Shown here piece by piece: positions 5,301-19,335 of a stretch of 32,000 nt of DNA. A model generated the notes under the pieces. That model was not told the origin of the DNA, made no database searches, and saw only the letters and a program-made list of their open reading frames with translations. The translations under genes were made by a program, and so were the position numbers. Positions within the stretch are counted from its first letter, which is position 1. Every line of letters starts with the position of its first letter. Source of the DNA: an archaeon (lineage in GTDB: Archaea; Asgardarchaeota; Thorarchaeia; Thorarchaeales; Thorarchaeaceae); NCBI GenBank assembly GCA_024275415.1, contig JAJRZD010000050.1, forward strand, positions 25,433 to 57,432. Reading direction: 5' to 3'.

Positions 5301-7111
5301 ACTATGATATCCAAAAGAAGAGTCGATAAGGCTGGTAGTCCTTGCCCTTGATACTTCTTGCTAATCTCGAAGACCAGCGATAAGGTAAGAGTAATTGACA
5401 CTGAGAGCAGTTCAGAGAACCACTCCAATATCGTACTTATGACACCACCAGGTCCAGGCGCGAGGAATGCAGAGATACTCAGGCTGAAGTCAGCATCAAG
5501 CTCGAAACGAAGTCCCCACTCACGCACATCTATGAAGCCCCGTTCAGTGTTGGATGCATCAATAGGTGGGAATGCAAGTTGCATCCATGCATGACCGAAG
5601 AAGTCAATGGTGAACTGTGCCATGAGTCCTTGTACCCAGTCATTTCCTGTCGGTAGGAAGGCACAGATACCCATTTCAATGTCCATAACCGGAATTACAT
5701 CAATGAACCTGCGGAGTTCGGTAAATCCTGCACGGACATCACCAAAGTCTGCAATGTCCACACCGCCAAGAACCGCTTCGTTCATGAAAGTTTCAAAGGC
5801 AGTCTTGTCAATCTCAAAGTCTGGAAGAAGCTTGATACGCAGAACCGCACCAAAGCTAGCGAAATTAGAACCGAGGTTCAGTGGAGTTCCGAGTCTAAAG
5901 AGAAAGACGGGAATAAGGCCTGCAAGGTCTGTCTGAACTGGGGTATTGATAATCTGGTTGAAGAAGTCCCCGATGTAGTCATCTACATCATACCACGAGT
6001 CTAGGATAAGCTGATCGATGAGTGACCAGAGCTCAAACATCTGTCGGGGGAGGAGTTCTGGCATCCAAGTGGCGAAATCGTGGTTGGTGACATTGAAACC
6101 TTGGTCGGTGAACCAATTCTGAAGTTCATCGCGAGCGTCCTCTATGACGCCCTGCATGTAATTGTTTAGTTCTTCAGCAGCATCAACGTGAATGCTCAAA
6201 TCTTGGAATCCTAGGTCTATCAGGGAATACAGAACAGTGTCAATAAGCCATCCAAGAGGCCCACCAACGCCGCTTGTGGGAGCCATCTCTCGTAGACCGA
6301 TGTAGTCTTCTCCTTGAGATGGGATCCCCAACCGCATTATAGGTTCAAGCTCCTCTCCTTGGTCATTGTATTGCTTTTCCTCAACGACCCATGACTCGGT
6401 GAGTGCAGGATCAGTAATTGGATCAGGAACATGCTCCCCGGTATAGACTTCGGGCATGACACCCTTTGCAAAGTACTCGTTGATGTTATCAGCAAAATCA
6501 CGAAGAACGTCTTCTCTGAGGTTCTCGCCAGTTCGGGACCATTTTGGTCTGTCCGAAAGCGACATTGTGTCAGCGATTGTCCAGATAGAATAGAGCCTAC
6601 CTAACCGGACATCAAGAACTTCTGCATCATCGACATGAAGGTTCGCGGCATCTCCCATGAAATCCTTCAATCGGTAGGCACTTCCAATGCCAAAGATGTG
6701 CTCGATAAATGAGTATTTGCCAATAACATCAGCAACCTCCTTCCACGGAACAGGGATGTCACGAATCACGATGCCATCCTGATTACTTTGGAAATAGTAT
6801 ATTGCATAGTCTGGACGGTAACGGTCTAATTCAGCATCGAGTAACAAGATTGATGAGATATCGAAGGACTCGACCAAGATTCCTTGTTTCACGAGGGGAC
6901 TGATCGTTTCAATGACCATGCTCTTAGATTCCTCACACTCTTTGTCGTAGTAGATATGTACAAGTGCGGGATTGTATTCGGCTATTTCCGGTTCCGTTGG
7001 TTCTGGCAGTGCTGACGCAGAAACAGGGAACATCAATGATGAGCTAAGGAGTATCATCATAGTGATGATGACTACTAGCTTACGTACTCCTATTTTCAAA
7101 TTAACCTGCAA
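2363..7111 (-). CDS. Giant cell-surface protein (~1580 aa): signal peptide, unknown N-terminal and beta-rich domains, ~26 thrombospondin type 3-like Ca-binding repeats, C-terminal TM anchor, Lys-rich tail
   Basis: TTG start (7111, or alternative TTG at 7099). Signal peptide [29 protein letters not shown] ends in an AxA site. Repeated D[TS]DxDGLxDGxE motif; TM segment [23 protein letters not shown]; basic tail [24 protein letters not shown]; many NxS/T sequons. Confidence 0.93.
2421..2480 (-). repeat. Four degenerate 15-nt tandem units encoding the (S/A)K(K/R)xx Lys-rich tail
   Basis: + strand units TTCTTAGCAGTCGTC / CTCTTCGAAGTAGTC / TTCTTAGAGGTGGTT / TTCTTAGAGGCAACT at 2421, 2436, 2451 and 2466. 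Confidence 0.75.
2651..4969 (-). repeat. Protein-level array of ~26 TSP3-like (DxDxDGLxDGxE) repeats
   Basis: Counted by eye from [12 protein letters not shown] to [12 protein letters not shown]. The typical unit continues ...Y-x-T-[DN]-P-x-x-x into the next repeat. DNA is degenerate, so this is a protein-level repeat. Confidence 0.9.
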
Positions 7112-7261
7112 CTCGATGACACCCCAATGGGTTACACAAAGAAAGAATATGCTCTGGATATTATCCGCTCTAATTCCGCGTGGATATCAAAGTGTATAGC
7201 GTGCTTATTACGTACATGAATCCTATCCAAATGGCGCATCCTTCTCTCCCAAGTGACTAAC

Positions 7262-7310
7262 ACCAATCACATTAATGGTAATTTAATCGATTACCCACAT
7301 TGGTATATAA
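7262..7310. promoter_or_regulatory. Candidate operator: nested inverted repeats next to a TATA-like element upstream of the surface-protein operon
   Basis: GGTAAT-N7-ATTACC (7277-7295) is nested in ACCAAT (7262-7267)...ATTGGT (7299-7304). The adjacent TATATAA (7304-7310) reads TTATATA on the minus strand. Confidence 0.35.
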
Positions 7311-7376
7311 TGATTATGATTTCATTCACCGCTCATCTATACAATCTGAGTCCTTTTGGGCCAAATGTCCCGAAGG

Positions 7377-7409
7377 AAAAAAGAAAGACTGGGGAACTCC
7401 CCAGCCTTA
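7377..7409 (-). terminator. Hairpin plus U-tract intrinsic terminator
   Basis: Minus strand reads AAGGCTGGGG-AGTT-CCCCAGTCTT followed by TCTTTTTTT. This is a 10-bp stem with one G-U pair, ~20 nt after the stop of the 63-aa gene. Confidence 0.8.
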
Positions 7410-7429
7410 GTTTGATTGATTGCTGAATC

Positions 7430-7621
7430 CTATTCTTCAGTTTCTTCTTCTGACTCGGGTTCTTCCGGCTTTTCTTCTTCTTCCTCTTTTTCGACCTTTT
7501 TGGCACTCACTGCAACGGGCTTCTCAGCTTTCCTGCTACAGACAACGGATGGAGCGAATACCAATGCAAGAAGAATCGCCACTAGGGCTGCTGATATTAT
7601 GATCAAATATGATTCCTCCAA
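7430..7621 (-). CDS. Small single-pass membrane protein with acidic C-terminal tail
   Basis: TTG start; hydrophobic helix YLIIISAALVAILLALVFAPSVV, then basic patch and Glu-rich tail; followed by a clear terminator. Confidence 0.75.
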   Translation of the reverse strand: MEESYLIIISAALVAILLALVFAPSVVCSRKAEKPVAVSAKKVEKEEEEEKPEEPESEEETEE

Positions 7622-7836
7622 ACATGCTTTCTGGTTCGAGGGGTTCTGTTACATGTTCTTAACACTTTCGAGTATCTATTCGTCCTTGGTTCCGTCATGT
7701 ACATCTGTCATCGTGTTCAACTCGCAATCAACGGCAAGACCTCTTCAAACATACATCCTCCGTGAACCAAAGGGACAAGAATAAATATCCAAAAGATGCA
7801 ATGATGAATTATCTTAAATAGATACATTCCTCAAAA

Positions 7837-7859
7837 ATGTTGTATTAAACCTACAACAT
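7837..7859. promoter_or_regulatory. Perfect 8-bp inverted repeat bracketing a TATA-like box upstream of the TPR gene
   Basis: ATGTTGTA-ttaaacc-TACAACAT; TATTAAA at 7843-7849; GAGGT SD-like motif just before TTG 7890. Confidence 0.5.
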
Positions 7860-7889
7860 ACAGCAACTCCAAGACAAAGAGGTTAGAAC

Positions 7890-8525
7890 TTGAAACACAA
7901 CGACGGTCCTGATTCGGGACACCTCCTCGATATCGCCAACAGATTCATGAATGAGTTGAAGTTCAGCGATGCTATCGAAGCATTGGAGAGGGCTGCGCAT
8001 ATCGATCCAAACAATCGAACATTATGGGATCGACTAGTGATCTGTAACCTTGAGTTGAAGCGGCCAAAGAAAGCTCTTGAAGCGATGAATTTCATCCTAC
8101 AGATTGATCCTAATGCATACCAAATCTGGACTGAGAAAGCGTACCTTCACTTTCTGCTTCAGGAACACAAAGAAGGAATCGATGCTCTCCAGACGAGCCT
8201 TACTTTGAATCCCAAGAATTACCGTGATTGGTTCTTACTTGGTTCTGTCTATATTGCGGGAGAGGAATGGGATGAGGCTCGATGGGCACTCCATAATGCA
8301 CTTCAGCTCAATCCAAACGATTCAAAGCTCTGGTATAACCTTGCTGTAGTCAATTTCATGCTGGGCGATCTTGGTGCGGCTGCTGGAGCTGCCGAGCTTG
8401 CTAAGGCAATAGATCCGACTCTGGAGATATCTGAGATTGGATGGCTAGAGGAACTGATAGATTCCACAAACTTCTTTGGTGATCATGGTGACTCATTGAG
8501 CTTTGATCTCGCTGCCGGAGGTTAA
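7890..8525 (+). CDS. Tetratricopeptide repeat (TPR) protein
   Basis: About five 34-aa TPR units (A..ALERA..IDPNN..LW; A..AMNFILQIDPNAYQIW; ALQTSLTLNPKNYRDWFLLG; ALHNALQLNPNDSKLWYNLA). TTG start preceded by GAGGT. Confidence 0.92.
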   Translation: MKHNDGPDSGHLLDIANRFMNELKFSDAIEALERAAHIDPNNRTLWDRLVICNLELKRPKKALEAMNFILQIDPNAYQIWTEKAYLHFLLQEHKEGIDALQTSLTLNPKNYRDWFLLGSVYIAGEEWDEARWALHNALQLNPNDSKLWYNLAVVNFMLGDLGAAAGAAELAKAIDPTLEISEIGWLEELIDSTNFFGDHGDSLSFDLAAGG

Positions 8526-10516
8526 GTCTTCTTTTTTGGCCTTGTTTTCTTTCTAGGTTTCTTCTTGGGAGTTTCTTTTGGTTGCCGTTTTTGAACCGTT
8601 TTCGGCTCTCCAGAATCCGGCTTTTTCCCTTTCAGTAGATCAAGCTCTTTCGAAAGAGTTTCGATCCTGCGCTTCATCTTGAACTGTTTTGCCGCATCTA
8701 GTGCTTGCTCTGTTGCATTGATTAGCAGTAGAGTTTCACGTTCTTTCTCTCTACTGTCCTGAATAGCGCTAAGTTCTTTTTTCCGTTTGGCAAGCACACT
8801 CAGAAGCCCTTTGATTGCCTCAGATGCCTCAGCCTTTGTAAGAGTTATCTCCTCAGGTTCTTCCTTTGCAATGCTGAGGATTCTATTTATCTGGTCATTA
8901 AGACTGATAAACTCATTAAGCGAGGACGAGAGTATCTCAATAACCTCCTCATCCCCCTGTGCATCGCTCACTGCTTGTTGCAACGTTTCGATGGCTCCTG
9001 ACAGGAACTCAGCCCGCTCGTCAAGAGATGACCTTTTCCGTTCCAGCCATCGCCATTCGCTAGAAATCTTCTGGGACAGGGTTCTTGCATCGTTGATTTT
9101 CTCTTGGTACTCGTCATACTTTCTCTTTGCTTCTTTCCATTCAGCTTCTAGCACATCAGTCGCGTGTGTGAGCTGATAGCTTAAGATGTGTCCAGCTTGG
9201 GCTTCAGTCAAGACCCTGCTTTCCTTAATGGCACGTATTGTTTCGACCCATATCCTCTCAAGTTCCTCTTCGTCCTTTGTGGATCTGCCGCTTTCATCGA
9301 ACTCTTCGGATATTCCTTTGATGACTTTGGTAAGGTCTTGGATTTCAGATATCTTTGCTCGGAGTAGCGAATGACCCAGTCTATCGCTCAGCTCGTTTGT
9401 AAGTTTCTCTCGCTCATTGGGGACTTCGAGAAGTGCATGAGTATTGTCAATTAGGATTTGGAGTGCCTGTTCATATTCTGCAACAGCCTCGTGGAACTTA
9501 GACTCCCTGATTAGTGTGTCCCCTCTCTTCTGTAACTCCAATACTCCCTCAAGCACATCATAGGGAGATGTCCTTAGGATACGGGTTCCGAACCCCACAC
9601 TATCTTCAGAGAAGAAGTCTAATGCCTGCTGTCCCCATAACATCGAAAGCACAAGGATTTTGTTTGGGGTCGCCAAGAAGATGTATTGGCCATATGCACG
9701 TACATGGTGTATTTTCGTCCCAGCAATCTTTGCAGAACCCAATAACACTCCTTTATTGATGTCCCATACCGAAACAATGGATGTGTTTGATGAAGCAATG
9801 AGGTACAGGTCGTTTGCCCACAATGAGCTGATGCTCCCATTGCCCGCCTGATTCAGGGTCTTATCTAGAGACCAATCCACTCTGTTCCAGAGCTTGATGC
9901 TTGCAGTAGTCACTCCTGTTATGATGAAGTTCGTATTGCCGACCAGTAATGCGCCCTTGTCTTTCTTATCCAGACGTTTAAGCTCGGTGGGAGCTCCTTC
10001 GCTTTCAAGCTTCCAGATAATAGGCTCGTCTTTGCTAGTGGAAGTGCAGATGATTTCACCATCACCCCATATACTGACGATATCCGCCTTGAAGAGCTGC
10101 CAGCTTGAAGTGTCATGGGAATCTTTCTTGATTGAAACGAGACGTCCTTCCTTGGCTCCCACGTAGAGGGAGTCGCCTCTCAGAGTGGAGGTCGCGGCTG
10201 TGTAGCTAAGTTCGAACCAGCCAATCATACCCCATGTATTTTTGTTCCAGACGTAGACTCTTTTCTCACATGTGGCATAGACCTGATTCTCATCAACATG
10301 GACTGCGAGAGGAGGTGAACTAGTTTCGCCTAGCTCTGCGACCAATTGCCAGTCACTGCGAGACCAGACTCTTACTTTAAGGTCAGTGCATGCAGCATAG
10401 ACATACTGTTCGTCTACGTTCAGATAGACTGCATCCCCCTCAAGCTCAGAAACGATTGTATGGTGAAATCGCAATGAGGATGCAGTACCCCCTGCGGATT
10501 TGGACATGGTATTCAT
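8522..10516 (-). CDS. WD40 beta-propeller + TPR-like helix pair + long helical/coiled-coil region + Lys-rich tail
   Basis: Seven WD40-like blades in the first ~295 aa (ending VRVWS, VYVWN, LVSIK, IIWK, IKLWN, VSVWD, ILVLS). These are followed by RGDTLIRESKFHEAVAEYEQALQIL, an E/K/L-rich helical region and the tail PKKKPRKKTRPKKKT. Start is ATG 10516 or 10507. Confidence 0.88.
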   Translation of the reverse strand: MNTMSKSAGGTASSLRFHHTIVSELEGDAVYLNVDEQYVYAACTDLKVRVWSRSDWQLVAELGETSSPPLAVHVDENQVYATCEKRVYVWNKNTWGMIGWFELSYTAATSTLRGDSLYVGAKEGRLVSIKKDSHDTSSWQLFKADIVSIWGDGEIICTSTSKDEPIIWKLESEGAPTELKRLDKKDKGALLVGNTNFIITGVTTASIKLWNRVDWSLDKTLNQAGNGSISSLWANDLYLIASSNTSIVSVWDINKGVLLGSAKIAGTKIHHVRAYGQYIFLATPNKILVLSMLWGQQALDFFSEDSVGFGTRILRTSPYDVLEGVLELQKRGDTLIRESKFHEAVAEYEQALQILIDNTHALLEVPNEREKLTNELSDRLGHSLLRAKISEIQDLTKVIKGISEEFDESGRSTKDEEELERIWVETIRAIKESRVLTEAQAGHILSYQLTHATDVLEAEWKEAKRKYDEYQEKINDARTLSQKISSEWRWLERKRSSLDERAEFLSGAIETLQQAVSDAQGDEEVIEILSSSLNEFISLNDQINRILSIAKEEPEEITLTKAEASEAIKGLLSVLAKRKKELSAIQDSREKERETLLLINATEQALDAAKQFKMKRRIETLSKELDLLKGKKPDSGEPKTVQKRQPKETPKKKPRKKTRPKKKT

Positions 10517-10538
10517 TCTCTATATCGGTGCGACCGCT

Positions 10539-10544
10539 ATTAAG
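10539..10544 (-). promoter_or_regulatory. Putative TATA box (TTAATA) for the WD40 gene
   Basis: Minus-strand TTAATA lies ~23 nt before ATG 10516 with no SD motif, consistent with an archaeal leaderless transcript. Confidence 0.4.
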
Positions 10545-10864
10545 TAAGTCTAGTTCCACAAAAGATTGTTTAAGACTTTGCTCATCAAGGAGGTTCTGTG
10601 GAAAAAGTACACAAGTCCCCACTTATCAGATGAGAATAGCTCGCCGTTCCAATTTTAGACGACCCAAAAGTGACAAGACCGCATGTTAATCCTACAATTC
10701 TCTTCTGTGTCATTCGAATCTTACTGGAGCCTATCAGAGAACAAGCTCGATTGCTAAAGGAATTTAAGCGATCTTGAGCGACCTACAAAAAAATAAGGGA
10801 GTAGACACAGAACACACTTAAGACATTCACCCCTTCATTTATCGTTAATACCGGAGGTAGATTA

Positions 10865-13552
10865 TTGGATAGCAACAAGTGGAGACGTGAGCTTGACCGA
10901 CTCTCTGAAATGAAAGGAATGCTTGTTTCGCTAAATCCGAGCCTTGAGGAGCAAACGAGCCACCAAGTTCGCCAACTGTATGATGTATTCGCGAATCTGA
11001 CGAAGACCGAAAACGAACTGGGTACTGCTGGATTCATGGCCAAGCGGAAGCTCCAGAGTCAGCTGGAGAGGGTCAACAGCGATCTTGAAGACCTGTTTAT
11101 GCGGATAGTGCGAGACTTTGCAGAGTACTTCCGAAAAGAGCATAGGGACATAATGGGACTGATGCCTCAGCTTCAGGAAATGAAACCAGCGAAAGCAAAG
11201 ACCATCTCATCTGTAAGATTTCCTTCAGTTGGGGCTGGTGATTTTGCTGATTTCGAGAGGCTGTACGAATTTGGCAACAGCTTCTCCAACAAATGCATCG
11301 ACCTAAAGAACGAACTGTCGCGTGAGGTGAAAGACCTTCTTGATGAGAATCGCAGGACTGTCGAGACCTTTGAGCGACATATCACAATTGACAGAGGCGA
11401 GGTGGCAACGACCCTTTCCAATGAGGACACTCACGGGCTTTCAGTGTCTGATCTGATAACCATGAACAACCGGTTGAAGTCAGAGCAGGTCTACCTCGAT
11501 GGTAGGAGAGGCGAAGTCGGGAGGATGCTTGGTGTTTCGCTGATCAGTGACATAGAGTCAGTACAGGCTTGGATTGAAACTGCCGTCCGGTTAGGATTAG
11601 AACTACCAATGGACTTCTCACAGAAGCTTAGGATTCTTGCCCGAGAGGCTTCCACGGCAGACAACCTGACGACATTGATTTCTCTTGAAAGCCAGATGCA
11701 TGCATCGCGCCTCCAACTAGCGAACATGCTGAAGGATAGAATCATCAACATGAAGCATGAGGTGACGACCAAATTCGTTGAGGCCGGGATACCGACAACT
11801 TCAGACATCATTCCACAAGCCCCCTCCATGGTCGTTGAGAACCAGGAGGTTCCAAGTCTTCTGTCTGCCTATCAGAAGATGGTCGAATGGGAGGGACAGA
11901 TCAAGCTAGCTCTCAAGAATAAGATAGAGGAGCTTCTTGACGACATCGATAAAGCGGCTGATTCGCCAAAAGACACAGGGATCACTGATGTGGTGGCTGT
12001 GCGCGAATTCGTTGCTGAAGCAAATAAGAAGATGAAGAAGGGCGAGCTTGATGACATGGTAGTGATCTATCAAAAAGCATCAACGATGGTCGAGGAGTAC
12101 AAAAAGAATGTGAAGGATCTTATCAAAGGATACCTCGTTCGCTTCAACGAGCTTGCGAGCTCTGCGGATCGCGTACTAGATTATGCCCAGCTCAGCAAGA
12201 AAGCACCGAAGGTCGAGGAACTACAAGGAGGCATCGTGTTCCATCTTAAGTCACTTGAGAATCTGCGAACCGCAGTGGAAAGTGGAGTGGCAACTTTCAG
12301 AGATGCCTGCAAACAGGAGATTGATGCGATCATACAAGACCTACAGACCATCAAGCCTGCATATGCCGAGATATTCATGCCCATCATCACAGAACTTGAT
12401 GAGGGTGAAACAAGGATTTCAAAATTGAACGAGTTCGCAGAGATCCGTTCTGAGATGCGAACGATAAAAGAAACCATTCTGGCCAAGTCGAAAGAGGCTA
12501 TTGAGAATCTAAGGTATCGTTTGGGCGTCAAGATCCGGCTTGCAGCTGCAAAGCTCATGGGTGCTGGAGTCGAGATCCCGAAAGAAGTACAGGAAGCCAT
12601 TAGCGAACTGAATAGCATCGGTGTTGCAGCAGACACGGTATTCAGCCTTCCACAGTTGGCAAGGAAAATGGTCGAACTCTATGAGAAGAAAATCACAGGC
12701 AATGTGGTGAAGTCACTGAAAGCGGAGGCAACCGAGCTTCGTGCCTCGTTCGACAAGGCTGCATCCATTGGGGTTCCACTAGATAATGAGCTGGCGATTC
12801 TGAATAGTATAATCAACAACCCACCAACCGAGTTGGAGGACACAGCGGATGCATTCGATAGGCTGGCAGGACTGACGACTTCTAAGGACATCCAGAAACG
12901 GGTGCGTGACAGGGGAAATGAAGCCTATCGACAGATCAATGGTGCTATCTCCATTTTTGAGGAACAAGGGATGCCCGATTTCGTCGTGAGGTTGAAATCA
13001 TTGCTCGAACAGGTTCCTGAAAGGATGCAGGCAGAGTCCAAGTTCATTACTGAGCCTTTGGAGGTCTGTCTAACACTAGCCAACGTGCAGGAAGAGATGC
13101 TTGGCGTGATGAAAAGCATTGCAGCCAAGGATAAGGAATCCTATGAGAAGGAAATACGCGAAAGAAGCAACTACTACTCGACCATCGAGCGAGTATATGA
13201 GAAGCACCCTGCTGACTTTAGTAGGTTGATATATCCCCTTGATAAAATGAAAGAGTTGGAAATGAACCTCCAGAATGCCGAGCAACTAGACAAGGCATTG
13301 GAATACTTCAACGAACTAAAGAGGATGCGAACCGAGTGGGTCGAGAAGGCGGAGAAGATGGATGACTGGCACAAGTCGATGAAGATGTTCTTGACTGGCT
13401 TTAGTCCCACCGCTAGTATCGATGAACGCGAGAAGTTCCTTGATGATGCGATCAGGAAAATCAAAGACACCTACAGTAGAGAGGACATAAGCTCTTATTT
13501 GACATGGGCGATAAAAGAGATAGCTCTCACAATGGTCGGAAAGCGAGGTTAA
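10865..13552 (+). CDS. Large all-alpha-helical repeat/rod protein (895 aa), function unknown
   Basis: TTG start with GGAGGT (10853-10858) 6 nt upstream. Amphipathic helices throughout with no TM or signal peptide. G-[LIVM]-x turn motifs at residues 244, 308, 372, 568, 636 and 702. Confidence 0.9.
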   Translation: MDSNKWRRELDRLSEMKGMLVSLNPSLEEQTSHQVRQLYDVFANLTKTENELGTAGFMAKRKLQSQLERVNSDLEDLFMRIVRDFAEYFRKEHRDIMGLMPQLQEMKPAKAKTISSVRFPSVGAGDFADFERLYEFGNSFSNKCIDLKNELSREVKDLLDENRRTVETFERHITIDRGEVATTLSNEDTHGLSVSDLITMNNRLKSEQVYLDGRRGEVGRMLGVSLISDIESVQAWIETAVRLGLELPMDFSQKLRILAREASTADNLTTLISLESQMHASRLQLANMLKDRIINMKHEVTTKFVEAGIPTTSDIIPQAPSMVVENQEVPSLLSAYQKMVEWEGQIKLALKNKIEELLDDIDKAADSPKDTGITDVVAVREFVAEANKKMKKGELDDMVVIYQKASTMVEEYKKNVKDLIKGYLVRFNELASSADRVLDYAQLSKKAPKVEELQGGIVFHLKSLENLRTAVESGVATFRDACKQEIDAIIQDLQTIKPAYAEIFMPIITELDEGETRISKLNEFAEIRSEMRTIKETILAKSKEAIENLRYRLGVKIRLAAAKLMGAGVEIPKEVQEAISELNSIGVAADTVFSLPQLARKMVELYEKKITGNVVKSLKAEATELRASFDKAASIGVPLDNELAILNSIINNPPTELEDTADAFDRLAGLTTSKDIQKRVRDRGNEAYRQINGAISIFEEQGMPDFVVRLKSLLEQVPERMQAESKFITEPLEVCLTLANVQEEMLGVMKSIAAKDKESYEKEIRERSNYYSTIERVYEKHPADFSRLIYPLDKMKELEMNLQNAEQLDKALEYFNELKRMRTEWVEKAEKMDDWHKSMKMFLTGFSPTASIDEREKFLDDAIRKIKDTYSREDISSYLTWAIKEIALTMVGKRG

Positions 13553-13557
13553 ATCAA

Positions 13558-14952
13558 ATGGTAACAGGTTCCCCTAGAATCGGAGAAGATGAAACGAAGG
13601 CAGCAGAAGTCTTTGCGATTGGTATCGGCGAGTGTGGCTCTAACATCGTGGGCTCTTATCTCAAAGCAAGCAAGGATAGGAAACTGCCCTCCCGAGTCAG
13701 AGGCTACTTACTCATGAACACAGATCGTGCTGACCTTACAAAAGTGCGGTCTAAATATGAGATACCGAAAGAACACACCATGCTCTACGGAGCAAGCGAG
13801 ATTGGTGTGGGTGGTCGTTTCATGGACGGCTATAATGCAATCCTTGAATCGAAAGACATCATCTTTGATCAGCTTGGAGACCTCGGATTCGAAGGTGTGT
13901 CAGGTTTCTGTATCTTCACTAGCTTAGGCGGTGGTACTGGCTGCGGAGGCACTCCAGCCATCATCGAGCTATTAAAACAGCGTTTCCAAGAAGAGGAGGG
14001 TCGCAGGATATTTGTCTATGTGATAGGCATCCTTCCCTTCGAAGGACAGTCAAGTGAAGCTCTCAATAGCATCTGGGCTGTTTCAAGACTGCTCCGAGCG
14101 CAGTTACAAGAACGCGGTGCAGACCTGACAATTCTCCTGAGCAATAGGACAATGCTGAAACGTATTCTCAATTCCCGACGAGCGGACAGCGTGGATTATC
14201 TTCAGCGCGAACTTGAGGTCGATATCGCTGATATCAATCAGATCGAGAAAATGGTTCCCTCAACGCTTGATGAAGGAGGCGAACTCGAAGCAAGGACTGA
14301 GCAGGCATTTGTCGAGCTGGTCAATCCACTTGCGCTAGACGTTGTGGAAGCTATGCTCTCGCCAGGCGTCTATGAGCCGAACAAGGATGTGTTTCCAACC
14401 ACTGACCTTGCAGATTATGCTCGAAAGCTCGATCCGGTCGTCGTCCCGGCACTGTACCAAGATGTCGGACTTATTCCGGATGCTGGGAGTATGCCTCGTC
14501 AGCTGAGGACAATGATTGACTATGCGATACGAGAATGCAGTTATGCCGACATCGGTGATGAGCCAAATGCGGAATCTGTTTACTACGTGTTCTCTGGTCC
14601 CAGACATGTCAGCAAGGCCGAGTACGGTATGCACCTAAAAGAAGCACTGGACAAGTTCATTGCTCCTGGCGCAGCCATCACTCCCTGCTATGTGCAGCGT
14701 TTCACCAAGGACGCGTCTACAGACCTGCTTCTTTTGCTAGGATTGCCCAAGATTCCTGAACTCGTTCAGATTATCAATGAGGCGACACAGCTCGTGAATC
14801 TGCACAGTGGTGCATCTCCACTCAAGCAGAGCTGGTTCATGCGCTCGAAAGGTGTCCAGAGAAAGGAGCTTGTTGATGCAATCGCTGACTTCAGAGAACT
14901 GTTCAGCTATTACATGACACCAGGAACAGGAGATATGTCACAGGGCGTGTAA
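13558..14952 (+). CDS. Divergent tubulin/FtsZ-superfamily GTPase (tubulin/CetZ-like, 464 aa)
   Basis: T1 loop GIGECGSNI; T2 MNTDRADL; T3 GVGGRFMDG; signature T4 SGFCIFTSLGGGTGCGG; ILPF...LNS; LLSN; T7 TTDLADY. ATG 13558 is 5 nt after the upstream stop with GAGGT SD, preferred over the track's 13504. Confidence 0.93.
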   Translation: MVTGSPRIGEDETKAAEVFAIGIGECGSNIVGSYLKASKDRKLPSRVRGYLLMNTDRADLTKVRSKYEIPKEHTMLYGASEIGVGGRFMDGYNAILESKDIIFDQLGDLGFEGVSGFCIFTSLGGGTGCGGTPAIIELLKQRFQEEEGRRIFVYVIGILPFEGQSSEALNSIWAVSRLLRAQLQERGADLTILLSNRTMLKRILNSRRADSVDYLQRELEVDIADINQIEKMVPSTLDEGGELEARTEQAFVELVNPLALDVVEAMLSPGVYEPNKDVFPTTDLADYARKLDPVVVPALYQDVGLIPDAGSMPRQLRTMIDYAIRECSYADIGDEPNAESVYYVFSGPRHVSKAEYGMHLKEALDKFIAPGAAITPCYVQRFTKDASTDLLLLLGLPKIPELVQIINEATQLVNLHSGASPLKQSWFMRSKGVQRKELVDAIADFRELFSYYMTPGTGDMSQGV

Positions 14953-14956
14953 AACC

Positions 14957-16021
14957 GTGTCCGATACATTCAAGGTAGAAGATCTCATCGATAGACTTCT
15001 TCTAGTGATAACCCTCAATTCGACTCTCGTTCATTTCCTGATAAGCTCCCAGATAGAGGGGTATGTTGATCCCGATAGGGTCGATTCCCTGACACAGGGG
15101 CTTATCAAAACAAGGTCGTGGATTGAGGAAGCAACGACTGCAGATGATATCCCCGCTTCGACATCCAATATTCTCAGTCTCATCGTGAAGCGGCTGACAC
15201 AGATTGAGAGCATCCTTCCCAAACTCTCCGAGCGAGCAAAGCAGGCTGAAAAAAGCCAGACTCCCGCGGCCGAGATTCTTTCTCTCTTGGATGGTAGCAC
15301 ACCATCATCAGCTACAAGTCAAGCATCCGCACCATCTGAACGAAGAGAAGACGCCACGATAGTACCATTGGTTTCAGGACAGCCAGAAGTACCTCAGGAG
15401 CCATTCAAAAGAGTTGATGTTGAGAATGACGAGTGGGGCATCATCGGTCAAACACAGATGCTCATCCAGCAATACAGTAAACGTTGCCATGTACTCCTTC
15501 CGACTTTCTGGTTGGAAGCCATGCGTGAGCTCCACAAGTACCAATCACAATCCCAGTATCTGGGAGATGTGATCGAGATACCTGCACGAGTTCTTGCCAA
15601 GATAATCAAAGGACTTCTGACAGAGGCTCCAGGTGCAAGACTGCTTCAGGATTTATTCAAGAAACGTCAACAGGAGAACTATCTTGACCCGTCCGAATCC
15701 GAGAGGATCAATAGGGCAGTTGCCAAGTATTTCCAGGGTCTTGAAGGGGTTCTCACAGACAACCTGCCTAATCCATCGGACAAGATTGCGGAGGCACAGA
15801 ATGCCTTTGATGGCTTTGGCTGGGGCGGTCCTGAGCTCGAGAAGAGGCTGATAAAACGAATCAATCAGCAATGTGAAGAAGCGATGCAGAACGCAGAGGC
15901 AACAACCGATGCAGCAAGAGCTGCCGTCTATGCCGAAACAACCAAGCTGTTATGCAAGCTGCAACATGCAATCCTTGCTGAACCTCGACTCAGGGAAATC
16001 CTTGCCGAGATGAAACCATAA
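14957..16021 (+). CDS. Hypothetical two-domain helical protein with S/A/P-rich linker; third gene of the tubulin-like operon
   Basis: GTG start 4 nt after the GTPase stop; 354-aa ORF; low-complexity segment GSTPSSATSQASAPSE...PEVPQEP between two helical regions. Confidence 0.82.
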   Translation: MSDTFKVEDLIDRLLLVITLNSTLVHFLISSQIEGYVDPDRVDSLTQGLIKTRSWIEEATTADDIPASTSNILSLIVKRLTQIESILPKLSERAKQAEKSQTPAAEILSLLDGSTPSSATSQASAPSERREDATIVPLVSGQPEVPQEPFKRVDVENDEWGIIGQTQMLIQQYSKRCHVLLPTFWLEAMRELHKYQSQSQYLGDVIEIPARVLAKIIKGLLTEAPGARLLQDLFKKRQQENYLDPSESERINRAVAKYFQGLEGVLTDNLPNPSDKIAEAQNAFDGFGWGGPELEKRLIKRINQQCEEAMQNAEATTDAARAAVYAETTKLLCKLQHAILAEPRLREILAEMKP

Positions 16022-16117: not shown

Positions 16118-17524
16118 ATGAAAGGTCTGGACATTATGCTTAACCCAAAGGTCACTGCAGTAGTGGGTGTGTCAACCTCGAACCCATTCTCACCCGGAAA
16201 TGTGATTTTCAGAAAGCTCTGCTTTGAGAATGGCTTGCCGACATATCCAATCAACCCCCGAGGTGGAACCGTAGAAGGTCAGAAGGTCTACAAGTCGCTG
16301 TCAGAGGCTCCTAACGACATCGAGATGGTCGTGATATCCGTACCTGCAAGGTTCGTGCCCAGTGTGCTTGAGGACTGCGGGCAAAAGAAGATCAAGGCTG
16401 TCATTGTCGTTTCAGGTGGTTTCAGCGAAACTGGCGAGTCCGGCTCGTCTTTACAGGACGAAATCATCGAGATCGCAAAGAAGCATGGTATCACAATGGT
16501 CGGACCCAACTGCATCGGTGTGTTTGTCCCTGACAGACTCGATACGTTCTTCCTACCTTCCGAGAGAGTTGCAAGGACTCGAAAGGGATCAGTAGTACTC
16601 ATCTCCCAAAGCGGCGGGTGGTTGATAGAACGACTGGAGGAGTTCGCCTCACGTGATGTCGGTGTCGCTGCTGCTATATCTATCGGCAATGCTGCTCAGA
16701 CCAAGGTCTATGATTTCATCGAGCATTTCGGCAACGACAATGAGGTCACTGCTATCGTCTGTTATATCGAGGGCTTTGGCGAGGGTGAAGGACGGAAATT
16801 CGCAAAGATTTCGTCAAAGGTCGCTGAGAAGAAGCCCGTTATCGTACTCAAGGGTGGGCAATCAGAGGCTGGACATCGTGCGACTCAAAGTCATACCTCG
16901 TCATTGGCTGGCAGCGCTCAAGTGACTTCTGCAGCGTTCAAGCAGTTTGGGGTCATCGAGGCAGCCGACGAGGATGAGGTGATGGCGTATTCCAAAGTGT
17001 TCTCATTCCCGTTCAGACCAATGAAGAAGAACAGACTTGGTTGTCTTACAGTCAGCGGTGGTCATGGTGTTATAGCCACTGACGAGGCAGACTACTACGG
17101 CCTTGAGTTCCCTCAGTTCACTGAGGAAGACCAGGAGGCAATGAGAAAGATGGTCACTGAGGCATATCAGGGAATCGCATCCTTCCGCAATCCCTGCGAC
17201 CTGACAGGAAGTGCCTCGGATGTGGACTATGAAGGTGTCTTGCGAGTCATGCTGAACATAGATTATGTCGATGCCGCACTGCTCCTCTTGCTCCCCTATG
17301 CACCAGGGATATCCCTTCAAATTGGCGCAAGGGTCGCCAATGTGGCCAAGACCAAGAGCAAACCAATCGTGGCATATGTGCCGGATCTTGACAAGTACGA
17401 GGTCATCATCCGAGGTTTCGAAATAAATGGGATTCCTTGTGCAGATACGATTGAAGAGGCAGTCCAGATGCTGAATGGTATTTGGAAGCGATCCCAGTAC
17501 CTGCATCGTGTGGGCAAGCTCTAA
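16118..17524 (+). CDS. acdA: Acyl/acetate-CoA ligase (ADP-forming) alpha subunit
   Basis: CoA-binding domain (VAVVGVS, YPINP, VVISVPA, GGFSE, GPNCIG), ISQSG, SIGN, YIEG, VLKGG, phospho-His motif SHTSSLAG, NPCDLTG. Substrate specificity cannot be determined from sequence. Confidence 0.9.
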   Translation: MKGLDIMLNPKVTAVVGVSTSNPFSPGNVIFRKLCFENGLPTYPINPRGGTVEGQKVYKSLSEAPNDIEMVVISVPARFVPSVLEDCGQKKIKAVIVVSGGFSETGESGSSLQDEIIEIAKKHGITMVGPNCIGVFVPDRLDTFFLPSERVARTRKGSVVLISQSGGWLIERLEEFASRDVGVAAAISIGNAAQTKVYDFIEHFGNDNEVTAIVCYIEGFGEGEGRKFAKISSKVAEKKPVIVLKGGQSEAGHRATQSHTSSLAGSAQVTSAAFKQFGVIEAADEDEVMAYSKVFSFPFRPMKKNRLGCLTVSGGHGVIATDEADYYGLEFPQFTEEDQEAMRKMVTEAYQGIASFRNPCDLTGSASDVDYEGVLRVMLNIDYVDAALLLLLPYAPGISLQIGARVANVAKTKSKPIVAYVPDLDKYEVIIRGFEINGIPCADTIEEAVQMLNGIWKRSQYLHRVGKL

Positions 17525-17527
17525 CTA

Positions 17528-18655
17528 TCATTGCCCCTTTGCAATTTTCAGGTAATCGAGATCCAGCGATTCCAGATGTTCGCGCAGCTCACCGGTGATT
17601 GTCAATGGGATGGCAGCTAGGTCTTCCACCTTCTCACAACCCGTGAGATACATCGCAGTCCTAAGACCTTCGAGATGAAGCTCTATCTCCGCAATGACAT
17701 CCTGTGTCGTGCCATTCACAGCTGGTTCTAGGAATGGATATGCCATTCCTGCGGCAGTCGCCCCGAGTGCCAGTGTCTTGGCAATATCGACACCAGAACG
17801 GATGCCACCAGTGGCGACCACATCTAATTTGGTCACGTCGGTCACAAGGATAAGGCTCAGAGCAGTGGGGATTCCCCAATCCCAGAACGTGAGCCCAAGC
17901 TGTGCTTTGATCGAGTCGTTCTCTCTAAGCGCCCGATAGTACTCTACAGCAGCCCAGCTCGTTCCACCAACGCCACCTATGTCAATGGCTGAGACGCCGG
18001 CTGCCTCTAGTGCCATCGCCACCTCAGATGAGATACCAGCTCCGGTTTCTTTCACCATTACAGGGACATCGACAGACTCGACTATCAGCGCGATGTTGTC
18101 TACCACGCCCATGGAATTACAATCACCTTCAGGCTGGATAGCCTCTTGAAGTGGGTTCAGGTGTATCGCCAAGATATCGGCATCGATCATCTCTACGGCA
18201 TCGGCAGCTACATCTACATGGGTCGCACCGATGTTTGCAATGATTGGTACGTTCGGTGCAGCATCCCTGACCACCCTAAAGGACTCGATCAGATCTGGGT
18301 TTTCGATGCCCGCACGTTGACTGCCAACCCCAATCGGTATCTTCATCTCCTCTGCTGCCTCTGCAAGTCGCTTGTTAATGGCTGTGGTGTCAGGATGACC
18401 TCCTGTCATCGCTGCAATCACCAACGGGGCACCTGCATGTAGACCAATGAAGTTGGTGGTTAGGTCTATGGCGTCTTTGTCAATCTCAGGCAACGCTTTG
18501 TGGACAAAACCTACATCTTCAAGAAGTGTCGTTCGATTGCACTGGACATTCTCTTGCAGACATATCTCAATGTGCTCGATCTTCCTGCGTTTGGTCATAA
18601 CAGATTCTTCGATGAGGTCGTTTCCATCATTCTCGACAGGCTTGCCTTTTGACAT
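17528..18655 (-). CDS. fni: Type 2 (FMN-dependent) isopentenyl-diphosphate delta-isomerase
   Basis: RKIEHIEIC, AMTGG, GVGSQR, HLNPLQE, KETGAG, GGTSW, DWGIPT and ATGGIRSG motifs. The true start may be the downstream MTKRRK Met. Confidence 0.96.
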   Translation of the reverse strand: MSKGKPVENDGNDLIEESVMTKRRKIEHIEICLQENVQCNRTTLLEDVGFVHKALPEIDKDAIDLTTNFIGLHAGAPLVIAAMTGGHPDTTAINKRLAEAAEEMKIPIGVGSQRAGIENPDLIESFRVVRDAAPNVPIIANIGATHVDVAADAVEMIDADILAIHLNPLQEAIQPEGDCNSMGVVDNIALIVESVDVPVMVKETGAGISSEVAMALEAAGVSAIDIGGVGGTSWAAVEYYRALRENDSIKAQLGLTFWDWGIPTALSLILVTDVTKLDVVATGGIRSGVDIAKTLALGATAAGMAYPFLEPAVNGTTQDVIAEIELHLEGLRTAMYLTGCEKVEDLAAIPLTITGELREHLESLDLDYLKIAKGQ

Positions 18656-18786
18656 GGGCTATCCTTCGCTAAATCCATAATAAACCTAACACTTTGGTAT
18701 CGATGCGTTACACCATCGCTCCAAAAACTTGCGTGATGCGAAGAATTTATCCACCGCATGGATACAAACCTATGCGGGCGCATAGC

Positions 18787-19335
18787 ATGGATGAAGAGAT
18801 AAAATATCGCGTAGAGAAAGAAGATGAACCAGAAACCAAGACAACAAAACGGAAATCGGTCTTCTTCGAACCTCTCCCAGAATCAAAAAAAGCGGTTATA
18901 GGAGAAGGAAAGAACAAGGCAATCACAACGCTCTTAGGCATAACTATGTACGAGCGTACACGAGATATTCTTGTCCTCATTCTGGTTCCTCTCTCTGTGG
19001 CATTGATTGACGCGAATCTTTACGCGCTCGTCGTGATTGATGTTCTACCCGACTCGACAATCTACCTCTTCGTTCTCCCAGCTTTGGCTGCAATCCCGAT
19101 AGGGCTCACAGCCGGAAAGACAAGCCATGGAGCCATCGGTGGCATCGTGTGTACGGTGTTCTTCTTGATTTTCCTAGAGCTGTTCTTCATCACGCCAGCA
19201 TTTATGGCTCCGGATGCACCCTTTGGCGAATTTGTATTAGCCGGACTGTGGATCAATTTCGTATACATGTTCTTCCTCGTGTTCGCCTCTCTCTTAGGAT
19301 CGTTGGTCGGCACTCTCCTGAGAGAGTTCTTCTGA
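18787..19335 (+). CDS. Hypothetical integral membrane protein (~4 TM helices)
   Basis: Charged N-terminal region then four hydrophobic Gly/Ala-rich segments. ATG 18787 is preferred over the track's 18694, which would leave almost no divergent promoter space with fni. Confidence 0.8.
   Translation: MDEEIKYRVEKEDEPETKTTKRKSVFFEPLPESKKAVIGEGKNKAITTLLGITMYERTRDILVLILVPLSVALIDANLYALVVIDVLPDSTIYLFVLPALAAIPIGLTAGKTSHGAIGGIVCTVFFLIFLELFFITPAFMAPDAPFGEFVLAGLWINFVYMFFLVFASLLGSLVGTLLREFF

Follow-up and report, generated by a model that had tools for sequence, protein, structure and literature searches.

An Asgard-restricted three-gene unit around the tubulin-superfamily GTPase Asg.Tub: a candidate filament system with two helical partners

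Does a divergent tubulin-superfamily GTPase of a Thorarchaeia genome stand alone, or does it belong, with the two helical proteins encoded on either side of it, to a self-contained filament system? The question arises from a stretch of 32,000 nucleotides (the window), in which three genes lie co-oriented on the plus strand, spaced by 5 nt and 4 nt according to the ORF list and a reading of the sequence, and together take up about 5.2 kb (Table 1). We refer to them as the rod, the GTPase and the third gene, and to the set as the trio.

The ORFs and gaps are as given in an earlier interpretation made without database searches (the sequence-only reading). It also had Shine-Dalgarno motifs before the first two genes only, and this is what is seen: GGAGGT precedes the rod and GAGGT the GTPase, while inspection of the sequence gives no clear motif upstream of the third gene, which starts 4 nt past the TAA of the GTPase. 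The mechanical ORF of the GTPase begins at 13504; the ATG at 13558, 5 nt past the rod's TAA, is preferred as the start because the N-termini of homologues agree with it and GAGGT lies 8 nt upstream. All three genes are considered real, since the GTPase passes the PF00091 cut-off and full-length homologues exist for all three proteins (E = 0 to 1e-145). The two genes flanking the GTPase are probably co-transcribed with it and translationally coupled to it.

Table 1. Coordinates of the trio, its sequence features and neighbouring genes in the window
Feature	Position	Strand	Remarks
TPR gene	7890-8525	+	upstream of trio
WD40-plus-helical gene	8522-10516	-	upstream of trio
Shine-Dalgarno-like GGAGGT	10853..10858	+	6 nt 5' of the rod's TTG; read directly from sequence
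Gene 1, rod, 895 aa, all-helical	10865..13552	+	TTG start; ORF and translation
Best-conserved part of rod, about residues 765-895	13157..13549	+	invariant W835, H836, Y878, L879 (alignment)
Gene 2, GTPase, 464 aa, Tubulin/FtsZ GTPase domain, Asg.Tub member	13558..14952	+	ATG start; PF00091
T4 tubulin signature GGGTGCG, residues 124-130	13927..13947	+	T127 at least 90%, other six invariant (alignment)
Probable T7 loop TTDLADY, residues 281-287	14398..14418	+	D283, D286 invariant (alignment)
Gene 3, third protein, 354 aa, two helical domains, no known family	14957..16021	+	GTG start; ORF and translation
N-terminal three-helix bundle of third protein, residues 7-101	14975..15259	+	model; weakly conserved across lineages
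Ser/Pro/Ala-rich disordered linker of third protein, residues 104-141	15266..15379	+	pLDDT mostly <50; length varies
Conserved C-terminal helical domain of third protein, residues 150-354	15404..16018	+	pLDDT >95
Nearest clear membrane protein	18694-19335		about 2.7 kb from trio

Outside the trio, the downstream flank holds a homologue of the acetate--CoA ligase alpha subunit (ADP-forming type) and a type-2 IPP isomerase. The sequence-only reading had named WD40-helical, TPR and small membrane genes as flanks; the first two are present upstream, but none of these genes is conserved with the trio and the nearest clear membrane protein is some distance away. An Arg-rich ORF of 99 aa at 10390-10689, overlapping the WD40 gene, appears spurious. 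A Pfam and NCBIfam scan of the window finds no division, plasmid, phage, integrase or DNA-binding genes adjacent to the trio, in keeping with the earlier description of a locus free of division, plasmid or phage and TubR-like genes. The only two other PF00091 genes of the genome are strong FtsZ matches located on other contigs, and a SepF gene is found on a third contig. The best reading of these gene positions is that the trio system would work beside the FtsZ1/FtsZ2/SepF machinery, not within it.

The GTPase scores 72 bits against PF00091 (cut-off 33, residues 17-201), or 74.7 bits in the whole-genome search. It scores 32.8 bits against the FtsZ equivalog TIGR00065, below the cut-off of 295.2, and 18.2 bits against PF13809 (Tubulin_2, FtsZl1/FtsZl2), under the gathering score of 27. 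Its C-terminal half has no match in Pfam to FtsZ_C (E up to 0.1) or Tubulin_C. Tubulin chains match it solely at residues about 77-199, with E-values of 7e-7 or weaker, and identity to OdinTubulin is 20%. The closest solved chains in a PDB profile search are CetZ1, CetZ2 and the M. thermophila CetZ, which match the N-terminal domain only. The published Asg.Tub member OLS26264.1 is 50% identical (E 2e-145), and two Thorarchaeota rows of the published Asg.Tub C-terminal alignment are near-identical to residues 224-461 of the window GTPase. By these comparisons the window GTPase is a member of the Asg.Tub clade, and is not an FtsZ, an FtsZl or a true tubulin.

The name Asg.Tub was given in 2023 to a CetZ-like clade of Asgard proteins, which was treated phylogenetically from 4 sequences (OLS26264.1, PWI48967.1, KXH77455.1 and OLS30664.1), with a gene context given merely as 'unknown genes', mostly coiled-coil (PMC9871819). 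In the published tree it falls outside the supported canonical CetZ node, as sister to Halo.Tub with support of 62, and the authors' CetZ C-terminal HMM does not match it (PMC9871819). That tree, together with the N-terminal-only alignment to CetZ, suggests that the window GTPase lies outside canonical CetZ. For the GTPase, 'undescribed' was thus too strong a word in the sequence-only reading, given that the clade and its coiled-coil neighbours were already in print (PMC9871819). Neither PMC9871819 nor any paper returned by full-text literature searches describes the constant rod-GTPase-third arrangement, where it occurs, the partner folds or the duplication reported below. The trio also matches no characterised operon (FtsZl1/2, CetZ, TubZRC), as the earlier reading held.

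Conservation within the GTPase is pronounced. An alignment of 24 sequences, with identity down to 43%, contains 66 invariant columns. In the T1 motif GxGECGxN, which reads GIGECGSN in the window GTPase, G22, G24, E25, G27 and N29 are invariant and C26 is conserved in at least 90%; N196 is likewise invariant. The T7 counterparts in FtsZ and alpha-tubulin are NxDFAD and NVDLTE, respectively. On the order of motifs, an H7-like helix followed by FP-TTDLAD-Y..L.P, TTDLADY is the probable T7 loop of the GTPase; in a MAFFT alignment with FtsZ and OdinTubulin it is VD222IAD, not TTDLADY, that occupies the T7 register. Within Thorarchaeota the GTPase is 85-96% identical, the rod about 60-83% and the third protein 64-85%. 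Slow sequence change is usual in polymer-forming proteins.

The GTPase might instead be non-polymerising, a regulatory GTPase of Misato-like divergence that works with the two helical proteins as a soluble complex. Such a role would suit both the C-terminal half, matching neither of the known domains, and the insertion of about 45 residues ahead of H7. We regard it as highly improbable, as the invariant acidic residues, relevant solely to hydrolysis across the interface of a polymer, are retained in the T7-like motif, and as sequence conservation this high is characteristic of filament-forming proteins.

The rod belongs to no family in Pfam or NCBIfam and has no relatives of solved structure. 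Its homologues are of equal length (E = 0), and the AF2 model (pLDDT 85.8, pTM 0.38) consists of about 30 helices of 10-45 residues. The periodicity of about 64 residues read from the sequence earlier finds no support at sequence level, where no internal repeats are detected and hhalign among eight candidate units reaches a best probability of 31%. Spectrin-like proteins (PRC1, EzrA) match the rod in fold no better than the background expected of helical proteins. A GCP/GRIP identity was considered and set aside, as it drew on one sub-threshold Pfam match in 1 of 27 orthologues, with no clear fold match. The most distant rod orthologues align by BLASTP only, or mainly, across the C-terminal end, which is a candidate GTPase-binding region. 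In the window scan, TM-like segments are absent from both the rod and the GTPase.

The third protein likewise has no Pfam or NCBIfam match. Its AF2 model (pLDDT 84.5) is all-helical and comprises a three-helix bundle and a 200-aa helical domain, the latter carrying the motifs LLPxFW, LLTEAPGARLLQDL, WGGPxLEKR and a terminal MKP. A profile search run exhaustively over 1.84 billion representatives returned 47 clusters of the family, and for the C-terminal domain nothing beyond that family. Foldseek gave no PDB match, the Atlas structure search was empty and the Atlas feature search was without a usable match. In a wider structure search the matches span only the N-terminal bundle and are of the generic three-helix-bundle kind. 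In a separate comparison the C-terminal domain resembles the C-termini of three AFDB entries (Foldseek probability 1.0, E about 1e-2, 8-12% identity), among them the haloarchaeal U1PAW8 and a PKD-domain-containing entry. One borderline TM window falls within a bundle helix. Complex prediction for the GTPase with the third protein scores 0.04 (mark 0.32), which is evidence neither for nor against contact.

The likeness to these three AFDB entries, despite its weak E-values, is one of several hints that the trio could be a module for membrane remodelling or trafficking, a role proposed by analogy with Halo.Tub, the sister group. In Makarova et al. 2024 the CetZ-like protein of Haloquadratum (Halo.Tub) is linked to an ESCRT-like Halo_adaptin system with IG-like proteins, and the published tree joins Asg.Tub to that group (PMC9871819). 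We find this quite unlikely for the trio, beside which ESCRT, Vps4, adaptin-like, IG-like and membrane genes are not conserved. TM segments and evident membrane-targeting helices are missing from all three proteins, and the sister relation itself is weakly supported.

How firmly, then, do the three genes belong together? A gene-neighbourhood survey, which the sequence-only reading had offered as a possible refutation, finds the rod and the third gene accompanying the GTPase almost without exception. In the set of 80 named genome loci, the rod immediately precedes the GTPase in 71 of 74, and the third gene immediately follows it in 75 of 76. The exceptions to the order among the 80 are accounted for case by case. 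Where loci were picked as distant, 12 of 14 keep the full rod-GTPase-third order and the other two retain rod and GTPase. A PF00091 gene also precedes the genes of two divergent members of the third family that the exhaustive search turned up. Across 301 sampled genomes, the three genes are each confined to the same 9 Asgard families, the remaining 21 having none of them, with the trio present in Thor-, Hermod-, Borr/Sif- and Heimdall/Hod-type genomes and in 66/76 of the sampled Thorarchaeota-family genomes. Its distribution is patchy, in that families sampled at 0/68 and 0/28 have none, which shows that Asgard cell architecture in general does not depend on the module. No further neighbour is common to more than three lineage groups; the WD40, TPR, CoA-ligase and IPP-isomerase genes are local to Thorarchaeota and their near relatives.

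The trees of rod and GTPase agree: their three major clades coincide, and support for these is at least 95%. Both also show a second rod and GTPase copy arising within the Heimdall-type clade. The third gene does not adjoin this second copy, which implies that the third protein may be dispensable or shared. Taken together, the linkage, distribution and trees indicate that the trio is an Asgard-restricted, vertically inherited three-gene module, and the linkage and co-occurrence surveys uphold the earlier proposal that the three genes form a self-contained chromosomal unit, conserved and built around a divergent GTPase of the tubulin superfamily.

Known prokaryotic tubulins that have operons of their own and no part in division often serve in partition together with an adaptor protein, and the compact trio occupies differing genomic places in different lineages, as a TubZRC/PhuZ-like segregation machine moving DNA or other cargo might. 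That function is very unlikely here: Pfam, NCBIfam and the AF2 models give no DNA-binding fold or family in the rod or third protein, plasmid, phage and integrase genes are absent nearby, and the prevalence in Thorarchaeota-family genomes, in a gene set that follows organismal clades, resembles that of the core chromosome.

The reading that we favour, with a probability of roughly 0.6, is that the trio encodes a GTP-driven homopolymer together with two cytoplasmic proteins dedicated to it, and that the system acts outside division, presumably in shaping the cell or organising its interior. The GTPase, with its nucleotide-binding loops and acidic T7 residues kept, most likely polymerises head-to-tail into homopolymeric, GTP-hydrolysing protofilaments. 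The rod would be a long chain of helical bundles whose conserved C-terminal end binds the filament and whose length spaces, bundles or stabilises filaments. The third protein would serve as a bipartite adaptor, its conserved C-terminal domain binding GTPase or rod and its flexible linker joining that domain to the N-terminal three-helix bundle. We infer polymerisation, GTP hydrolysis, mutual binding and the cellular role from sequence, and the roles of the partners are assigned by analogy, neither having a recognisable filament-binding domain. The anchoring, bundling or regulation of the GTPase, and the part in shape or protrusion, that the sequence-only reading put forward are likewise conjecture.

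The partners may also be regulators of assembly and not structural. EzrA and stathmin restrain assembly, and tubulin cofactors chaperone folding; similarly, the GTPase could form CetZ-like dynamic filaments alone while an EzrA-like rod and the third protein restrain, cap or chaperone it. The CetZ identity of the closest solved relatives is consistent with this, as is the second copy without its third gene, which fits an accessory role. We hold it to be a possible but doubtful alternative, given that the EzrA/PRC1 matches of the rod are no better than the helical background and that strict 1:1:1 gene linkage across the family equally suits stoichiometric partners.

The filament-with-partners reading can be carried further. 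The trio could be a self-contained tubulin-plus-MAP system that predates the split of Thor/Hermod/Borr from Heimdall/Hod, near the eukaryote stem, with the rod as a cross-linker or spacer of PRC1/MAP65 or EzrA design and the C-terminal domain of the third protein as a module that binds CetZ-like tubulins specifically and that partners of Halo.Tub also possess. In this full form we think it rather unlikely. The value of the finding is limited by the prior publication of the GTPase clade and by a function that is so far conjectural. Nevertheless, the Asg.Tub module is a different tubulin-superfamily system, widespread and strongly conserved in close archaeal relatives of eukaryotes, and it brings two partner families without relatives in the libraries searched. 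The three predicted soluble proteins should express easily, which makes filament formation, the effects of the partners and the question of a prokaryotic MAP directly testable.

Among known systems, CetZ provides the best solved matches (Haloferax volcanii CetZ1 and CetZ2 and Methanosaeta thermophila CetZ; 4b46, 4b45, 3zid), with profile E-values of 1.5e-13 to 1.6e-7 over the N-terminal GTPase domain. Like Asg.Tub, it is an archaeal, non-division member of the tubulin superfamily that coexists with FtsZ1 and FtsZ2; the differences are that the C-terminal half of the window GTPase does not align and that CetZ is without conserved partners of this sort, the contexts being reported as 'not related' (PMC9871819). 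In the OdinTubulin locus the tubulin gene is flanked on either side by coiled-coil genes (PMC9871819), a layout shared with the trio: helical protein, tubulin homologue, helical protein, in an Asgard genome. OdinTubulin is, however, a true tubulin relative that reaches only E 9e-10 on the Asg.Tub profile, and neither of its neighbours (539 and 484 aa) resembles the rod family or the third family in hmmsearch (E up to 10) or hhalign. TubZ-TubR-tubC and BtubA/B-BtubC are likewise compact operons that combine a prokaryotic tubulin homologue with dedicated partners; the trio differs in its single GTPase gene, in having no DNA-binding or TPR/kinesin-light-chain-like partner and in its chromosomal core distribution. 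In proposed design, it would come to resemble FtsZ with EzrA/SepF and tubulin with MAP65/PRC1, in which a polymer is combined with a long helical-bundle partner and a small adaptor.

The three co-oriented genes for a helical rod, a tubulin-like GTPase and a third protein constitute a real and conserved module. A sequence-only reading of this DNA had taken them for one operon, and a neighbourhood survey bears this out, the rod and the third gene travelling with the GTPase across Asgard families. Among 14 loci picked for distance, with GTPase identities of 43% to 78% and from nine GTDB families, the rod gene lies directly upstream of the GTPase in all 14 and the third gene directly downstream in 12 (BLASTP and HMM searches); the two lacking it are a second, paralogous rod-GTPase pair of a Heimdall-type family. 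In 80 loci from named genomes of Thorarchaeota, Hermodarchaeota, Borrarchaeota/Sifarchaeum and Heimdallarchaeota, 71 of the 74 with enough sequence for the rod carry it immediately upstream of the GTPase, and 75 of 76 carry the third gene immediately downstream. Of the three exceptions for the rod, two have a rod ORF containing stretches of N, and a genome search recovered the rod in both; the sole exception for the third gene is an artefact of longest-ORF calling. Of 301 sampled Asgard genomes, 115 have the GTPase, 114 a match to the profile of the third protein's C-terminal domain and 119 a match to that of the rod, all three being confined to the same nine families (f1, f12, f22, f2, f6, f8, f15, f16 and f29). 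Presence is 66-67 of 76 genomes in f1 (65 for the third gene), 15-16 of 19 in f12 and 19-21 of 21 in f22; no trio gene was found in the remaining 21 families, including families sampled 68 and 28 times. By coordinates, the genes are neighbours in almost all of the genomes compared. A few genomes (G059, contig C69; G133, C96; G190, C230) have one partner separated from the GTPase by 4-10 kb of the same contig, a spacing that points to inserted DNA within the operon.

The window derives from an Asgard MAG of 3.5 Mb, 93% complete, which the names of its homologues assign to Thorarchaeota, and base composition is uniform over the trio region. The GTPase ORF is listed from 13504, but the ATG at 13558 lies 8 nt 3' of GAGGT and agrees with the N-termini of 23 homologues, so that the product has 464 aa and the gap to the rod gene is 5 nt. 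The sequence upstream of the third gene's GTG holds no clear Shine-Dalgarno motif. ORF positions, starts and gaps, when re-read, agree with the coordinates and spacing first reported. The flanks fared otherwise. When all ORFs of 16 loci were clustered, no other conserved neighbour was common to more than three lineage groups, and the WD40 and TPR genes first listed as flanks are, like the CoA-ligase and isomerase genes, local scenery outside the conserved unit; the WD40/helical gene stands beside the trio only in close relatives. Ordinary metabolic genes, the CoA-ligase homologue and the IPP isomerase, form the operon's downstream boundary. A Borrarchaeum locus (L024) likewise has the CoA-ligase gene after the trio. 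As for the small membrane genes likewise proposed as flanks, the nearest membrane protein is 2.7 kb away and has no link to the operon, and the Arg-rich 99-aa ORF, overlapping the WD40 gene at its 5' end, is probably not a gene and encodes no membrane protein.

Coordinates of features in the window and in three fetched loci (prefixed L)
Feature	Position	Strand	Description
Trio	10865-16021	+	three co-oriented ORFs occupying the whole interval
Rod gene	10865-13552	+	895 aa; TTG start six bases 3' of GGAGGT
GTPase gene	13558-14952	+	464 aa
Third gene	14957-16021	+	354 aa; GTG start, 4 nt past GTPase TAA
Third-protein C-domain	15416-16012	+	residues 154-352
WD40/helical gene	8522-10516	-	664 aa; N-terminal WD40-type propeller, helical/TPR tail; divergent to operon
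Arg-rich ORF	10390-10689	+	99 aa; divergent intergenic region; extremely Arg-rich, net charge +18; no family
Acetate--CoA ligase alpha-subunit homologue	16118-17524	+	TIGR02717, 370 bits, under 567-bit cut-off
Type-2 IPP isomerase	17528-18655	-	TIGR02151, 404 bits
Membrane protein	18694-19335	+	213 aa; several TM-like segments
Second rod-GTPase pair	L022:9420-14180	-	family f22, Heimdall-type
Second rod-GTPase pair	L026:6060-10831	+	family f22, Heimdall-type
Convergent gene	L022:7150-9369	+	739 aa; downstream of f22 paralogous pair; Gtr1/RagA-type small-GTPase domain, E 9e-31
Divergent lineage	L032:1-497, 2541-9809		rod 1311 aa; third protein 602 aa, C-domain 377-600

Residues 17-201 of the GTPase match Pfam Tubulin (PF00091, 72 bits); in the same scan Tubulin_2 stayed under threshold and FtsZ_C and Tubulin_C gave no match, and the FtsZ equivalog model, whose cut-off is 295 bits, gave 32.8. 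The solved chains closest to the family profile are Haloferax CetZ1 and CetZ2 and Methanosaeta CetZ (E 1.5e-13), in alignments limited to the N-terminal domain, and true tubulins rank after them at about 1e-6. The protein is a member of Asg.Tub, a CetZ-like Asgard clade published by Santana-Molina et al. (PMC9871819). The C-terminal alignment published for that clade contains OLS26264.1, which is the very same protein as one of our GTPase homologues, and two of its Thorarchaeota rows are almost letter-for-letter identical to the window GTPase. In the published tree, Asg.Tub (support 100, long stem) has the haloarchaeal group Halo.Tub as its sister (support 62) and falls within neither canonical CetZ nor the tubulin/artubulin clade; around its genes the paper reports only unknown genes, most with coiled-coil regions (PMC9871819). 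Full-text searches found no study of an Asg.Tub protein or operon. The word 'undescribed', as first applied to this system, does not hold for the GTPase, whose clade is already named; the trio as a module and the families of its two partners appear in no paper found.

An alignment of 24 GTPase family members, with identity down to 43%, has 66 invariant columns, among them the T1 motif, which reads GIGECGSN in the window, the greater part of the T4 signature GGGTGCG, N196, and D283 and D286 in TTDLADY. An H7-like helix, EQAFVELVNPLAL, precedes FP-TTDLAD-Y-x-x-x-L-x-P, and this succession of elements marks TTDLADY as the probable T7 loop, with the catalytic acid retained. MAFFT alignment with FtsZ1, FtsZ2 and OdinTubulin instead sets FtsZ NLDFAD against VD222IAD, which leaves the register probable rather than proven. 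Intact nucleotide loops, this acidic T7-like motif, very slow sequence change and the fixed, tightly spaced operon suggest that the GTPase forms a homopolymeric, GTP-hydrolysing filament, built with two dedicated partners; that it never polymerises seems highly improbable.

Neither partner could be assigned to a Pfam or NCBIfam family, in scans of the single sequence or of all aligned orthologues. Nor did HMM and profile-profile searches detect any likeness between the rod or third family and the two genes beside OdinTubulin (539 and 484 aa). The AF2 model of the rod (mean pLDDT 85.8, pTM 0.38) is wholly helical, with about 30 helices in bundles, and reads as a confident local fold of loose overall shape. 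Structure searches with the rod returned background-level matches only, no sequence repeats were detectable in it, and a language-model look-up with its C-terminal 156 residues placed an EzrA cluster second at 0.78, under the tool's noise mark. The most conserved stretch is the C-terminal 130 residues or so, and through this end the rod may act as a filament-binding spacer or bundler. The maximum-likelihood trees of GTPase and rod agree on three major clades, supported at 95% or above, the rod evolving about twice as fast. The second Heimdall-type copy falls within the Heimdall-type clade in both, which implies that the pair was duplicated jointly; it has no adjoining third gene, and an unrelated, family-less 311-aa gene lies upstream of its rod. 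Across lineages the rod varies from 873 to 1326 aa and the third protein from 293 to 602 aa, the GTPase remaining steady at 440-500 aa. The divergent-lineage locus L032 also has, three genes upstream, a gene for an Arf/Ras/Roc-type small GTPase.

In its AF2 model, the third protein has a three-helix bundle at the N-terminus (residues 7-101), which a disordered linker (104-141) joins to a helical domain of 200 residues with pLDDT >95 and sharply conserved motifs; the protein could serve as a two-headed adaptor. It is somewhat unlikely that the two partners are instead regulators of assembly. When 1.84 billion representatives were searched exhaustively by profile, the third family amounted to only 47 clusters; two divergent ones, when looked up, lie just after a PF00091 gene that is itself preceded by a large family-less gene. 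No solved structure matches the protein. In AlphaFold DB, beyond two orthologues, Foldseek finds its C-terminal domain to resemble three uncharacterised C-termini, those of U1PAW8 (1096 aa), A0A2H9NDX8 (461 aa) and A0A849PIB6 (a fragment annotated as PKD-domain-containing), with probability 1.0, E-values of 8e-3 to 9e-2 and identity of 8-12%. A Haloquadratum Halo.Tub member has been tied to an IG-domain-rich 'Halo_adaptin' system (Makarova et al. 2024) and, Halo.Tub being the sister group, a partner domain common to both systems is conceivable. No convincing TM segment occurs in rod, GTPase or third protein, and a membrane-remodelling module resembling the Halo_adaptin-linked Halo.Tub is an improbable reading.

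The genome encodes FtsZ1, FtsZ2 and SepF elsewhere and has no tubulin-superfamily gene besides the two for FtsZ and this GTPase, which makes it likely that the module acts outside core division; a partition machine is very unlikely. The module probably belongs with the tubulin-superfamily filament systems that have dedicated partners, and its likeness to FtsZ-EzrA/SepF and to tubulin-MAP65 is one of design, by analogy and not by homology.
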